Assembly (NCBI GenBank): GCA_963811675.1
Contig: CAWESH010000005.1
Coordinates: 9,749 to 73,748, forward strand
Direction: 5' to 3'
Origin: an uncultured Actinomycetes bacterium
Lineage (GTDB): Bacteria > Actinomycetota > Thermoleophilia > Gaiellales > JAICJC01
DNA length: 64,000 nt
Below the pieces are notes generated by a model. It saw only the letters and a list, made by a program, of their open reading frames with translations. It was not told where the DNA came from and did not search any database. Made by a program: the position numbers and the translations under genes. This document shows, in pieces, positions 2,736 through 58,802 of this stretch. Positions within the stretch are counted from its first letter, which is position 1; each line of letters opens with the position of its first letter.

Positions 2736-4376
2736 ATGGCCACCGCGGCAGAGCTGTTCGTTCGATGCCTCGAAAACGAGGGCGTCCGCTACGTGTTCGG
2801 CATCCCCGGCGAGGAGACGCTCGATCTGAACGAGGCGCTCGACCACTCGTCGACGGTCGCCTTCGTGCCGGTGCGACACGAGCAGGGGGCGGCCTTCATG
2901 GCCGACGCGTACGGCCGGCTGACCGGCCATGCCGGCGTCTGCCTGGGGACGCTCGGGCCCGGTGCGACCAACCTCGTCACCGGCCTGGCCGACGCGTTCC
3001 TCGACCGCGCCCCGGTGGTGGCACTGACCGGGCAGACCAGCCTGGGCGAGATGCACAAGGAGAGCCACCAGTACATCGACGTGGTGCGGATGATGAAGCC
3101 GGTGACCAAGTGGAACGCTCGCATCCACGACCCCGAGATCATTCCCGAGGCGGTACGCAAGGCGTTCGCCGTCGCCGAGCGGGAGAAGCCGGGCGCGACC
3201 CATCTCGAGCTTCCCGACGACGTCATGGAGACTCCCATCGATGCTGCGCCGGTGCCCCGCCGCCCGGCGCCGCTGGTGGAGCCCGTGGCCGGCGAGCTTC
3301 ACCGCGCCGCCCAGCTGCTGCAGTCCGCCGAGGCCCCGGTGATCCTGGCGGGAAACGGCGTTGTTCGCCAGAACTCGGCCGCGGCGCTGCGGCGATTCTG
3401 CGCCCAGAGCGGGCTGAACGTGATCACCACGTTCATGGGCAAGGGCGTGATCGACTCCGACAGTGAGCATGCGCTGTTCACCGCCGGGCTCCGCGCCCAG
3501 GACTATCCGCGCGGATTCATGGGCAAGGCCGACCTGGTGGTGTGCGTCGGCTATGACCTGGTCGAATGGTCGCCGCGGGCGTGGAATCCCAATCACGATC
3601 GGCGCGTGATCTGCATCGACACGGTGGGAGCCGAGGTCGACGAGCACTACGTGCCCGACGTCGAGCTGACCGGCGACATCTCATCGATCCTGACGCACCT
3701 GGGAAACCTGATCTCGGAAAAGCCGCCGGCGCGGCTCCCGGCACCCCCCTACCGCGAGATGTTCCGAGCGGTGCTGGAGGCGGGCTCGGACGACAGCTTC
3801 CCGATCAAGCCGCAGCGCGTGCTGCGCGACCTGCGCGAGCTGATGGGGCCCCACGACCTGCTGATCTCCGACGTGGGCGCGCACAAGCTGTGGATCTCGC
3901 GACTGTGGCCGACGCACCAGCCGAACACCGTGCTGATCTCCAACGGGGCGGCGGCGATGGGCTTCGCCGTCCCCGCGGGCGTGGCCGCCCGGATGGTGCT
4001 GCCGGCCGACCGCAAGGTCGTCACGATCTCGGGCGACGGCGGGGTGTTGATGAACTTCCAGGAGATCGAGACCGCCAAACGGCTGGGCCTCGCGGTCGTC
4101 AACCTGGTGTGGACAGACAGCGCCTACGGCGTGATCGAGATGCACCAGCAGCGCAAGTTCGGGCGGCTGGCCGGCACCAAGTTCACGAACCCCGACTGGG
4201 TGGCGCTGGCCGAGTCGTTCGGAGTCATGGGCGTGCGGGTCGGCTCGGCGGCCGAACTGGTACCGACGCTCCAGCGAGCACTCGCCGCCGACGTCTCGTC
4301 GGTGATCGAGATTCCCGTCGACTACCGCGAGAACTCCACCTTCTCCCAGACGCTCACCGACCTCAGCCGCAGCTGA
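2736..4376 (+). CDS. thiamine-diphosphate enzyme, acetolactate synthase large-subunit-like
   Basis: MATAAELFVRCLENEGVRYVFGIPGEE.. and the GDGG..MN TPP-binding region. Start placed at the third Met (2736) because 2679 would overlap the divergent GT2 gene. Uninterrupted over 1.64 kb. Confidence 0.85.
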   Translation: MATAAELFVRCLENEGVRYVFGIPGEETLDLNEALDHSSTVAFVPVRHEQGAAFMADAYGRLTGHAGVCLGTLGPGATNLVTGLADAFLDRAPVVALTGQTSLGEMHKESHQYIDVVRMMKPVTKWNARIHDPEIIPEAVRKAFAVAEREKPGATHLELPDDVMETPIDAAPVPRRPAPLVEPVAGELHRAAQLLQSAEAPVILAGNGVVRQNSAAALRRFCAQSGLNVITTFMGKGVIDSDSEHALFTAGLRAQDYPRGFMGKADLVVCVGYDLVEWSPRAWNPNHDRRVICIDTVGAEVDEHYVPDVELTGDISSILTHLGNLISEKPPARLPAPPYREMFRAVLEAGSDDSFPIKPQRVLRDLRELMGPHDLLISDVGAHKLWISRLWPTHQPNTVLISNGAAAMGFAVPAGVAARMVLPADRKVVTISGDGGVLMNFQEIETAKRLGLAVVNLVWTDSAYGVIEMHQQRKFGRLAGTKFTNPDWVALAESFGVMGVRVGSAAELVPTLQRALAADVSSVIEIPVDYRENSTFSQTLTDLSRS

Positions 4377-5338
4377 GAGCCCCGAGCGTCTCGCGCACGC
4401 CGGCACGCAGCGCCTCGAGGTCGTAGCCGCCCTCGAGCACGAGCGCCAGCGGGATTCGCAGCTCGCCCAGCTGCCCAGCCATGACCCCGAAGGTCTCGGT
4501 GGACAGGCGCAGAGAGCCCAGCGGGTCATCGGCGTGCGCGTCGAACCCCGCGGAGACGATCACGAGCTCGGGTCGGTGGGCCACGATCGCCGGGAGCGCG
4601 AGCTGCCGAAACGCCGTGAGGTACTCGGCATCTCCGGTGCCGGCCTCCAGCGGGATGTTGAGCGTGGCTCCGGTGGCATCTGGCCCACCTCGATCGGTCG
4701 CGGCGCCGGTACCCGGGAAGAAGCCCCAGCCGTACTGGTGCAGCGACACGTACAGCACATCGGGGTCGTCCCAGAAGATGGCCTCGGTGCCGTTGCCGTG
4801 GTGCACGTCCCAATCGAGCACAGCCACCCGCTCGACCCCGCGGGCGCGCGCGTGCGCCGCCGCGACCGCCACCTGGTTGAGCAGGCAGAACCCCATCGCC
4901 CGGGATCGCTCGGCGTGATGCCCGGGGGGACGGCCGGCGCTGAAGGCAGCGGTCGCCTCCCCGCTGAGCACCGCGTCGACGGCGGCGATCGCGCCACCGC
5001 ATGCGTGCACGGCCGCATCGAAGCTGTCCGCAGACACGATCGTGTCGGGGTCGACCTGACCGCCTCCGGCCGCTGCCAGCTGCCGCGAGCCGCGCGACGT
5101 CAGCGGGGTCGTGCACCCGGGCGATCGCGTCCATCGGCGCGGCCGGAGCATCGCCGGTCGCCCAGCCGGATTCGGCTACAGCAGCGAGCACGGCGTCATA
5201 CCGGGCGGGTCTGGTCGGGGTGCGGACCCGGGATCGTGCCGGCGAAAAACGTCGTTCAGATAGGCCCGGGTGTGTCCAGTTTGTGACCGCGATGCCGTCC
5301 CGATGTTTATTGGGGAATCCGTCATAATTGCCGAACAA
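4363..5338 (-). pseudogene. histone-deacetylase-family (AcuC/aminohydrolase-like) gene, frame-broken as sequenced
   Basis: The catalytic core (GRPPGHHAE, DWDVHHGNGT, FFPGTG) is in ORF 4363..5151. The upstream conserved part (RPARYDAVLAAV..IARVHDPADVARLAAAG) is in the frame of ORF 4526..5338, and the join near 5065-5085 needs a 1-nt correction. More N-terminal residues (..VFRRHDPG..) sit in a third frame near 5200-5260. Length is 976 nt (3n+1). Confidence 0.75.
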
Positions 5339-5445
5339 AGTGAGGTTATTAATCTCCGCTTAACAATCCTAGACCCTAAATCAACCCCTGAGCGTGCATA
5401 ATGCCTTTCACGATTCCGCACACCTTGTAACACGCAAGGAGCAGT

Positions 5446-56562: not shown

Positions 56563-57822
56563 CGCGCATGATCAATCACCTCCACCCCACGCACACCACC
56601 CTGGGGAGTGCAACCGCTCCCCAGGTGGGGGTCGCATCCGAGGTTGGCACGCTGCGGCGAGTGATGCTGCACCGGCCCGGGAACGAGCTGAAGCGGCTCA
56701 CGCCGACCAACAAGGATGACCTCCTGTTCGACGACGTACTGTGGGTCAAGCGCGCTCGTCAAGAGCACGACGCGTTCGCCGATGCGCTCGTCGAACGGGG
56801 GGTCGAGGTGCTCTACCTCAACGAGCTGCTGACCGAGACACTCTCGGCTGAAGCCGCCCGCACCGAGCTGATCGACGGCATGTTGCGCGTCGGCGGCACT
56901 CGGGATGCGGTTCACCGCAGAGCTCAGAGACTGGCTTGGAGAGCTCTCGCCCGAGACGCTGACGGAGGTCGCGATCGCGGGTGTGACGTATGACGAGTTG
57001 CCGCGATTGGGTCGCTCGCTGGCCGCACAGGTTGCGGCACCGGACGAGTTCGTGCTGCCGCCGCTGCCCAACCACCTGTTCACCCGCGACACCTCGGCCT
57101 GGATCTACGACGGGGTGACCGTGAACGCGATGGCCAAGCCGGCGCGTGTGCGTGAGGCCGTGAACGTGAATCTGATCTATCGCCACCACCCGGCATTCCA
57201 GTCCGCCGCCCCGAACTTCTGGAGCGACGATCTGGGCGAAGCCGCGACTCTCGAAGGCGGCGACGTGCTGGTGGTCGGCAAGGGCTGCGTGCTGATCGGG
57301 ATGGGCGAGCGCACCCGTCCGGCTGCGGTCGAGGCGATGGCGGGACGGCTGTTCGAGGCGGGTGCGGCCCGGCAGGTGATCGCGGTGGTGCTGCCCAAAC
57401 AACGATCGGCCATGCACCTGGACACGGTCATGACCATGATCGACCGAGACGCGTTCACGATCTACCCCGAGCTTCGCCACAGCCTGAGCGCGTACTCGCT
57501 GGTGCCGGGTCGAGATGCGCTTTCGATCACCCCGGTGCCCGATCTCTTCGCCGCGCTGGCCGAGGCACTCGACGTCGAGCAGCTGCGTCTGATCGAAACC
57601 GGCGGCGACCGCTACGAGGCCGCCCGCGAACAGTGGGACGACGGCAACAACGTGCTCGCCGTGGCTCCCGGGGTCGTGGTCGCGTACGAGCGAAACGTCG
57701 ACACCAACACCCGCCTTCGCCACGAGGGCATCGAGGTCATCACCATCGCGGGAGCCGAACTCGGCCGCGGCCGAGGCGGTCCCCGCTGCATGTCGTGCCC
57801 GATCCTCCGCGACCCTGCGTGA
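56559..57822 (+). pseudogene. arcA: arginine deiminase, one frame break
   Basis: [26 protein letters not shown] in ORF 56460... Then ..[33 protein letters not shown] in ORF 56905... The +1 join is near 56895 (gtc ggc G gca ctc). The ATG overlaps the arcD stop (ATGA). Confidence 0.85.
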
Positions 57823-57841
57823 CCACCAAGGAGCGCCACAA

Positions 57842-58802
57842 ATGACCGAGACACTCACCGCCAAAGTCACCCCCCGACGATCTGCTGCGGATCAGCGATC
57901 TCGACGAGCACCAGTTCGAGCATCTGCTGTACCAGGCGGCGTGCATGAAGGCTCGGCCGTTCGAGTACCGCACCCAGCTGCCGGGCAGGATGATCTCCTG
58001 CTACTTCGAGAAGCCGTCGACCCGCACGCGGGTGTCGTTCGCCGGCGCCGCAGCTCGGCTGGGGATGACCGCGCTGTGGCTGCGGCCGGATGAGCTGCAG
58101 CTGGGCCGCGGCGAGCCGATCGCCGACACCGCCCGCGTGCTCGCCGGGTACTCGGCCGCAATCGTGGTGCGCACGTTCGATCAGGCGGTGGTGCAGCAGA
58201 TCGCCGATGCCAGCGACGTGCCCGTGATCAACGCCCTCACCGACCAGCACCACCCCTGCCAGGCGCTGGCGGACTTCCTGACGCTGCGCGAGCGGTTTGG
58301 TGAGATCCACGGCTTGCGGCTCGCATACATCGGCGACGGCGACAACGTCGCCCGGTCGTTGATGGAGGCCGGCGCGCTGGCCGGCGTCGAGATCGTGGTC
58401 GCCTCTCCCAAGCACTATCGGATTGGCGCCGGGGAGACCCAGCGGCTGGAACGCGTCGCCCGTGAACACGGAAGCCACGTGACGGTGGTCGACGATCCGC
58501 GCGAGGCGGTGCGAGGCGCCGACGCCGTCTACACCGATGTGTGGGTGTCGATGGGCGAGGAGTCCGAACGAGCCGCGCGGCTGCGGGAGCTGGAGCCGTT
58601 CCGAGTCACCCCAGAGCTGATGGCACTGGCCAACCCCCATGCGGTGTTCATGCACTGCCTTCCCGCGCATCGCGGCGAGGAGGTGTCGGCCGCGGTCATC
58701 GACGGGCCGACCAGCGTTGTCTGGCAGCAGGCGGCAAACCGGCTGCCGACCGAGCAGGCGCTGCTGCACTCACTGATCAGGGGAAACTGGGTGGCACCAT
58801 GA
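57842..58802 (+). pseudogene. arcB: ornithine carbamoyltransferase, frame break after codon 11
   Basis: MTETLTAKVTP is followed by a run of six C (57870-57875). With five C the reading continues DDLLRISDLDEHQFEHLL..FEKPSTRTRVSF..HPCQALAD..HCLPAH, which is ORF 57945... Confidence 0.85.

Follow-up and report, generated by a model that had tools for sequence, protein, structure and literature searches.

The reading-frame breaks that run through the window, as the whole 64,000-nt stretch of DNA analysed here is called, are very probably not a biological feature but residual errors in the consensus of a metagenome assembled from Nanopore reads alone, as comparison with close relatives indicates; the organism itself most likely carries the affected genes intact. 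The window derives from a Gaiellales-like (Thermoleophilia) metagenome-assembled genome (MAG). Its closest relatives are all long-read MAGs of Microflora Danica (MFD), G1 and G2 being labelled as such in their own records and the remaining close relatives bearing contig_N names and falling in the same series of ENA assemblies (ERZ250394xx-ERZ250395xx). A 145.5-kb NCBI+ENA contig bears proteins 100% identical to those of the window, suggesting that the window belongs to the MFD project as well. The MFD pipeline relied on Nanopore R10.4.1 reads only, assembled by Flye 2.9.2 (--meta --nano-hq) with one round of Medaka 1.8.0 and without short-read polishing (PMC12313526).

Star alignment of the window with the syntenic relatives G1-G4 (2-4 per site, 87-94% nucleotide identity, 94% for G2) uncovered 82 window-private indels, comprising 68 insertions of 1-2 bases and 14 non-3n deletions (65 of +1, three of +2, 12 of -1, one of -2 and one of -4), an insertion to deletion ratio of ~5:1. 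The direction of each indel was called from at least two relatives, except in the PLP-dependent decarboxylase, where G2 was the sole reference (84-90% identity); positions 1-2790, covered by no relative, lie outside the comparison. Protein-to-DNA searches with tblastn, which resolve frame steps at the level of HSPs, gave 28 of "+1" and 4 of "-1". The sequence-only reading had counted about 50 breaks, 44 against 6 in favour of insertion and confined to ~28 genes. The breaks are indeed present in the deposited sequence and more numerous (71 events in genes), the insertion excess reappears in the recount, and the number of affected genes is borne out (29 of 58), while the confinement to genes is not, as spacers carry events too (Table 1). 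Its counts for ccmF (three) and dinB-2 (four) were reproduced; the exonuclease carries five insertions rather than three, the three breaks of the sensor-like gene were not reproduced, each of the two sensor kinases having one insertion, and the base ascribed to a C6 run (57870-57875) is a G added after the run.

Table 1. Genes and spacer positions of the window with private indels.
Feature	Coordinates	Strand	Private events
Histone-deacetylase-family gene	4363..5134	-	1 insertion: 5087 G
Hypothetical 174-aa gene	5856..6390	-	insertion 5989 T; +2 event 5858-5871, where the neighbouring gene overlaps
dinB/IMS copy a	6412..7462	-	insertions 6870 A, 6897 T; deletion near 6549
WYL/PafC-type regulator	7522..9649	+	insertion 8653 G
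queG	9622..10591	-	insertion 10225 A; both-allele site (G1 G, G2 A, window GA)
CpgS_N-domain gene	13771..15103	-	insertions 13979 G, ~14581; deletion near 15028
Metallophosphoesterase	15100..15910	-	insertion 15251-15253 (C)
ccmF	20765..22777	-	3 insertions: 22185, ~22300, ~22701
Two DUF5122-like genes	22929..25193	+	insertions ~23060, 23588 A, 24604
ccmE	25203..25602	-	insertion 25402 C
70-aa gene and SIMPL gene	25884..26910	+	insertion 25913 C (70-aa gene); deletion 26197 (SIMPL gene)
DUF3054 gene	27929..28337	+	insertion 28092 C
Hypothetical 369-aa gene	28292..29404	-	insertions 28754 T, 28914 A, plus 1-2 at 28367-28371
S15/PepX-type peptidase (most damaged gene)	29499..31576	-	11 inserted bases: 29767, 29920, 30038, 30496, 30608, 30841+30849, 31178, 31267, 31325, 31419; 2 deletions: 31528, 31564
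PLP-dependent decarboxylase	31600..33090	+	13 non-3n events vs intact G2 gene: 8 of +1, 1 of +2, 4 of -1
dinB/IMS copy b (dinB-2)	33092..34283	-	4 insertions: 33443 A, 33638 C, 33728 A, 33911 C
5'-3' exonuclease	34314..35143	-	5 insertions: 34330, 34363, 34416, 34498, 34528
Na+/H+ exchanger	35578..36761	+	insertion 35926 T (vs four relatives); -4 event 36758-36768 at the 3' end
HAMP/HisKA sensor kinase	36760..38103	-	insertion 37778 C
VIT1 family gene	42965..43604	+	insertion 43240 G
GerE-type response regulator	46685..47318	-	insertion 46898 G
GAF sensor kinase	47315..48968	-	insertion 48539 (T on + strand, A in gene sense)
Phosphoketolase (XFP)	49647..52030	+	insertions ~50813, 50894 T, 51280 A; deletion 50610
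Acetate kinase	52012..53089	+	insertion 52639 C
P1B-type ATPase	53067..54948	-	insertion 53098 A, a few codons ahead of the stop
Ornithine carbamoyltransferase (arcB)	57842..58802	+	insertion 57876 G directly after C6 run, 35 nt into the gene
Non-3n events outside genes	5212, 5227, 22834, 25606, 26099, 31579, 46307, 56564, 60250, 60273, 62581		26099 is -1, 31579 is -2, 60273 is -1

The events are strongly clumped along the window (variance/mean of events per kb 3.29, p = 8e-16). The stretches 15251-22183 and 37777-43234 are event-free, matching the clean zones recognized previously (15300-22100 and 37800-43200), and the region 28.1-34.5 kb holds at least 45 events, where 20 or more had been claimed for 28.3-34.3 kb. 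The insertions of ccmF all fall within 600 nt adjoining the next dirty stretch, the remaining 1.4 kb of the gene being clean, and the insertion in the P1B-type ATPase abolishes the stop codon, so that a 793-aa ORF (52693-55074) arises. The tested span has 79 non-3n events, 8 of them in spacers (e.g. 5212, 22834, 25606 and 56564), and the full catalogue of 82 places 11 outside genes; event density is 3.1/kb in spacers versus 1.3/kb in genes. Circular shifts of the events predicted 28.2 +/- 2.1 genes hit and 29 were observed (P = 0.72), demonstrating that the clustering is positional and not gene-wise. The gene-wise clustering with whole operons spared, previously put forward for a biological origin, is thus not upheld, the more so as spacers are hit and G2 is broken where the window is clean.

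The inserted base had no identical neighbour in 32 of the 51 insertions of unambiguous base, run lengths at the insertions equalled those of a random-insertion simulation, and none of the 89 homopolymers of at least 5 bases was extended in the window, in keeping with the earlier impression that the extra bases lie mostly outside homopolymers. Neither a position-specific composition bias nor, after multiple testing, an enriched k-mer was found at the insertion sites, and a shift motif is therefore lacking. A recurrent feature is the tandem of both alleles at a site polymorphic among the relatives, as at 51280 in the phosphoketolase gene, where relatives carry either G or A and the window carries GA. 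Such tandems make up 17 of 57 window insertions against 6.4% expected (range 6-8%, p = 6e-8), and they recur in G2 (7 of 20, p = 3e-4) and G4 (4 of 11, p = 0.005). The repetition of this pattern in two other MAGs points to a consensus artefact.

No break is common to the window and any of G1, G2 (94% identity), G3 or G4, and where genes of the window are broken, their orthologues in G1, G2 and G3 read through as single open frames. The relatives carry sets of their own: G2 has 18 private insertions and one deletion, located in ALS, WYL, pspA, hyp321 and other genes where the window is clean, and G4 has 6 private deletions beside 11 insertions. Over 59 kb, G1 shows a single private frameshifting deletion plus one further non-3n event, and G3 is free of private non-3n events over 19 kb. 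As some MAGs of the same pipeline are clean, the pipeline by itself is insufficient to produce the effect.

The broken genes bear no mark of decay at the level of substitutions. Once the private indels were removed, 26 broken genes and the decarboxylase were devoid of internal stops, the decarboxylase frame being open throughout with zero stops, and the sole "stop" after repair lies in the DUF3054 gene, 3 codons ahead of the normal end. The window-branch dN/dS was 0.060 for broken genes, 0.057 for intact genes and 0.050 for the seven genes with at least three shifts (broken vs intact, Fisher p = 1.0), with no rise towards 1 in broken genes of the kind expected from relaxed selection. The non-synonymous fraction on the window branch was 0.13 versus 0.74 under neutrality (p = 1e-85), leaving at most 1.6% of the branch neutral, so real decay would require an indel to substitution ratio of at least 2.8. 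Inside the broken genes there were neither nonsense mutations nor IS elements nor larger deletions, no mixed lesion spectrum with deletion bias was seen (68 insertions versus 14 deletions), and no excess of substitutions was found in the dirty stretches.

These results render a genuine, very recent pseudogenisation, in which genome decay or a mutator episode fixed dozens of single-base insertions, very improbable. The clumping of the breaks with some stretches untouched would suit it, and the absence from the window of kup and an ABC-transporter pair present in the relatives could be read as gene loss. Natural bacterial pseudogene decay is deletion-biased, whereas insertions prevail here. Pseudogene-rich genomes such as those of Mycobacterium leprae, Leifsonia xyli and recent symbionts resemble the window in having many frameshifted genes among intact neighbours; they are also marked by relaxed selection, nonsense mutations, deletions, mobile elements and deletion bias, none of which was seen in the window. 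Non-synonymous changes stay 6-fold under the neutral level with dN/dS equal in broken and intact genes, up to 13 shifts in one 2-kb gene are accompanied by only 6 non-synonymous changes (against 32 synonymous ones on the window branch of the S15/PepX-type peptidase), the sister MAG is broken in different genes, and the both-allele tandems have no mutational explanation. Inactivation of half of the genes is also implausible in a free-living soil actinobacterium.

There is likewise very little probability that part of a heterogeneous population truly carries the extra bases, for example as minority indel alleles or in a hypermutating subpopulation, and that a consensus of mixed haplotypes captured them. 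The both-allele tandems do show that more than one haplotype fed the consensus at many sites, but such a tandem fuses two substitution alleles into a chimera and is not an indel allele that any cell carries, the same selection arguments hold, and even so no single genome would have these frames broken. Least credible, with practically negligible probability, is that the frameshifts are real and tolerated, full-length proteins still being made through an unknown motif-less +1 decoding or transcript repair operating dozens of times per 60 kb. This would account for the purifying selection that persists to either side of each break, and the repaired frames are fully open, but the sites share no sequence motif, their positions are not conserved even in the 94%-identical relative, spacers are hit too and some events are deletions. 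Programmed +1 frameshifting (prfB, or genome-wide as in Euplotes) shares the +1 direction and the selection kept downstream of the shift, and differs from the window in its conserved slippery or stop-codon context and position; we know of no bacterial recoding or RNA-correction system of such density.

Consensus error thus stands as the favoured origin, and the unchanged dN/dS, the lack of nonsense codons after repair and the indel sets private to each assembly allow the comparison to decide without reads, contrary to the earlier view that the sequence alone could not. The technical explanation offered previously, insertion-type read errors in poorly polished segments, is supported in a refined form: the breaks resemble errors of consensus building or polishing, some of them at sites that vary between strains, rather than raw read errors, which are unlikely given that substitutions are not in excess alongside. 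Judging from the sequence comparison, majority read support for the extra bases is probably lacking. In the proposed mechanism, the extra bases, and the few missing ones, would remain in kb-scale stretches of poorly supported consensus with low or mixed coverage, where the polisher or consensus step, on meeting disagreement between draft and reads or between co-assembled strains, may add the second base while keeping the first. Strain mixing cannot be the whole mechanism, since the both-allele share is only about one third and no preference for the third codon position was seen among the insertion slots (1|2 slot, 14.5 of 48 versus 16 expected).

Nanopore-only assemblies and MAGs examined by IDEEL-type tests likewise show conserved genes split by frameshifts, in a manner dependent on the assembly and not the lineage and worse at poor support. 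Nanopore consensus errors are typically homopolymer indels, often deletions, whereas in the window no homopolymer of at least 5 bases is affected, insertions prevail by ~5:1 and one third are both-allele tandems. This non-homopolymer spectrum is unusual for Nanopore and counts against the platform explanation, and no description of such a spectrum was found in the literature. The indel effect is acknowledged for low-coverage MAGs of the MFD catalogue (PMC12313526; PMC9262707), and near-finished R10.4 consensus needs ~40x coverage according to the same group (PMC9262707).

Such errors can be told from real pseudogenes without reads by an unchanged dN/dS in the broken genes, the absence of nonsense codons after repair and both-allele tandems at sites polymorphic among relatives, and the insertion-biased spectrum outside homopolymers, not being textbook Nanopore, may merit the attention of the maintainers of assembly and polishing tools. 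Annotation of the deposited sequence would label half of the genes of the window as truncated or pseudogenic, including those for cytochrome c maturation, phosphoketolase, acetate kinase, two dinB copies and a gene of the arginine deiminase pathway. Conclusions on metabolism, loss of genes or decay of the genome drawn from this MAG would be misleading, and the same caution applies to its sister MAGs, such as MFD03975.bin.2.246, one of the species-representative genomes in the searched collection.

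The window has a GC content of 68% and no tRNA genes, and its Mg-ATPase, 2-phosphoglycerate-kinase-like and GNAT genes have homologues whose annotation assigns them to Gaiellaceae or Gaiellales MAGs. Its closest contigs all fall within a single ENA series (ERZ250394xx-5xx) with Flye-style names and include, by record name, the Microflora Danica (MFD) MAGs MFD02134.bin.1.51 and MFD03975.bin.2.246. A 145,500-bp NCBI+ENA contig, presumably the source, encodes proteins 100% identical to those of the window, which presumably stems from the same Nanopore-only project as these relatives. 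Indels were polarised with four close syntenic relatives: G1 (contig_11392, assembled from four loci; 86-90% identity; window 2.8-64 kb; all annotated genes intact ORFs), G2 (contig_22380 of MFD03975.bin.2.246, L009/L011; 94% identity; 2.8-38.3 and 52.7-64 kb), G3 (L002; 35.6-55.1 kb) and G4 (L003, contig_15577 of ERZ25039577; 33.4-49.2 kb). Pairwise alignments were mapped to window coordinates, compensating indel pairs were cancelled and each event had to be backed by two or more close relatives, while the more distant G5 and G6 (76-80% identity) were left out of direction setting because private +/-1 events are unreliable at such distance.

In total, 82 window-specific indels emerged from the alignments to close relatives, comprising 65 of +1, 3 of +2, 12 of -1, one of -2 and one of -4, and 71 of them lie within genes, affecting 29 of the 58. 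The sequence-only reading had described many clumped, mostly +1 breaks outside homopolymers, a picture that is borne out and was rather conservative. The insertion excess was also recovered by an independent search of coarser resolution, tblastn with G1 and G2 proteins as queries (28 '+1' vs 4 '-1' frame steps), and the clumping is strong (variance/mean 3.3 per kb, p = 8e-16). The insertions are context-free. At 32 of the 51 unambiguous ones the flanking bases differ from the inserted base, the inserted bases are mixed (C16, G13, A13, T9), and run lengths 1-4 at the insertions (63/25/10/2%) match those expected from a simulation in which bases were inserted at random (55/30/11/3%). Not one of the 89 homopolymers with at least five bases was lengthened, no methylation-like, slippery or other motif was enriched at the insertions, and event density showed no link with divergence or GC.

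The same reading had regarded the gene-wise clustering of the breaks as what real mutations under selection would give, an argument that the placement along the contig removes. The 29 genes hit are far below the 37.7 +/- 2.5 of a uniform model, and circular shifts, which retain positional clumping only, yield 28.2 +/- 2.1; event density in spacers is at least as high as that in genes. Since clumping predicts the gene count and spacers are hit as well, no gene-wise sparing remains for selection to explain.

Substitutions on the window branch were counted as single-codon changes polarised with G1 plus G2 (or G3). Broken genes carry 594 synonymous and 102 non-synonymous changes (dN/dS ~0.060), intact genes 466 and 79 (0.057), and the seven genes with at least three shifts 199 and 29 (0.050), with sister-branch values equal to those of the window branch. 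The S15 peptidase gene has 13 shifts yet just 6 non-synonymous changes. By a Poisson bound, the neutral share of the branch in heavily hit genes is at most 1.6%, which corresponds to ~12 neutral substitutions against 34 frameshifts and to an indel:substitution ratio no lower than 2.8. Such ratios in nature are ~0.05-0.15. When frames were repaired by deleting private insertions and padding deletions, every broken gene was open throughout, the decarboxylase included; the sole 'stop' lies in a DUF3054 gene, three codons ahead of the normal end, and the repaired genes contained neither nonsense mutations nor larger disruptions.

No window break was found in the closest relatives, and G2 and G4 carry their own different sets. 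In the coding sequence of G2, 18 single-base insertions and one deletion are private, many of them at places without breaks in the window (acetolactate synthase, a WYL regulator, pspA, an M48 peptidase and the other part of ccmF), and G4 has 6 private deletions and 11 private insertions, the latter splitting mgtA, a nuoF-like gene and a sensor kinase gene among others. G1 shows a single private deletion that shifts the frame plus one further non-3n event over 59 kb, and G3 shows no such event over 19 kb. The frameshift sets of the sister MAGs are independent, insertion-biased in several and without a common event, which is what a technical process acting across one Nanopore-only project would predict. 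G2, in which ccmF, the acetolactate synthase and the WYL regulator are among the split genes, belongs to the species-representative genomes of the searched collection.

A small baseline of homopolymer-type frameshifts was seen in unrelated public metagenome contigs, which were scanned at the conserved HQDPGF site of phosphoketolase with a pattern tolerating one or two bases. The normal single base was found in 118 of 120 contigs, among which there is no close relative of the window, so that these counts do not bear on the window itself; the other two (L065 and L150, from short-read JGI metagenomes of distant taxa, ~71% identity) show a T run lengthened by one base.

A possible route to the insertions is suggested by tandems in which both alleles of a site polymorphic among relatives stand side by side. 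They make up 17 of the 57 testable window insertions vs 6-8% under random insertion (p ~6e-8), and 7 of 20 and 4 of 11 private insertions in G2 and G4, respectively. A disagreement between draft and reads, or between co-assembled strains, may have been resolved by adding the second base and keeping the first, turning would-be mismatches into +1 insertions. This would account for the bias towards insertion, the independence from context and the missing excess of window-branch substitutions, no such excess being seen in the dirty, indel-rich stretches or in the 3 nt on either side of insertions with a unique placement. The lack of a nearby excess was first read as speaking against strain mixing, a view dropped once ambiguous insertions were analysed properly. 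Strain polymorphism and second-base addition cannot explain all events, as the insertion slots show no third-codon-position preference and two-thirds of events lack visible polymorphism.

Depth or strain mix varying locally, over distances of about a read length, would fit the kb-scale patches. The MFD catalogue, whose reads are public (ENA project PRJEB58634), was built from Nanopore R10.4.1 reads only, with Guppy SUP, Flye 2.9.2 (--meta --nano-hq) and a single round of Medaka 1.8.0, and its authors report coding-density problems tied to coverage (PMC12313526); according to the same group, a near-finished R10.4 consensus takes about 40x coverage (PMC9262707). The sampling rate differed between samples, being 4 kHz for some and 5 kHz for others (PMC12313526), which might explain the contrast between dirty MAGs, such as MFD03975.bin.2.246 and that of the window, and clean ones, such as MFD02134.bin.1.51.

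The frame breaks are very probably consensus errors of technical origin and no biological feature, as the sequence-only reading had considered; dN/dS, the open repaired frames, the positional placement and the separate sets per assembly all support this. They behave like known frameshifts of Nanopore-only consensus sequences, but the spectrum is atypical of that class in that the insertions lie outside homopolymers. Genuine pseudogene decay disagrees with the pattern on every sequence-level criterion, and so does programmed frameshifting.

Positions of event patches, both-allele sites and other features of the window
Feature	Position	Strand	Observation
Event-free stretch	15251-22183		
Event-free stretch	37777-43234		
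Densest patch	28.1-34.5 kb		
Other dirty stretches	5.0-6.9, 14.0-15.3 and 22.2-26.2 kb		
Both-allele site	10225		G1 = G, G2 = A, window = GA
Both-allele site	34498		relatives T/G, window = TG
Both-allele site	51280		relatives G/A, window = GA
PLP-dependent decarboxylase	31576-33084		also in G2, least conserved stretch against it (84-90%); unrelated ~1.4 kb in G1
Spacer between exonuclease gene and riboswitch	35144-35483		340 nt without counterpart in any relative (spacer there ~45 nt)
Fluoride riboswitch	35489-35551	+	Rfam RF01734, 42.6 bits, full length
Na+/H+ exchanger-family gene	35578-36761		directly downstream of riboswitch; private insertion
Missing kup (K+ uptake, 649 aa)	about 43605-43619		G1 and G3 carry it between mgtA and VIT1; also missing in G4
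793-aa ORF	52693-55074	-	artefact: insertion 53098 removes stop of 626-aa P1B-ATPase, adding ~125 codons
Apparent arginine deiminase pathway cluster	55117-59770		amino-acid antiporter, arginine deiminase, ornithine carbamoyltransferase, carbamate kinase
Missing 2.4-kb segment (ABC-transporter ATPase, ABC-2 permease)	about 60270-60281		in G1 and G2; +1 event at 60250 and -1 event at 60273 flank junction

The 340-nt spacer has no second copy in the window or the fetched loci. In the arginine deiminase cluster the antiporter was named from NCBIfam and the other genes from sequence motifs. The missing ABC segment could be real gene-content variation or assembly collapse.

Long ORFs in the window are unsafe as proof of intact genes. 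The worth of the finding lies in a warning on this record and its sister MAGs, together with a set of diagnostics that can be applied without reads.
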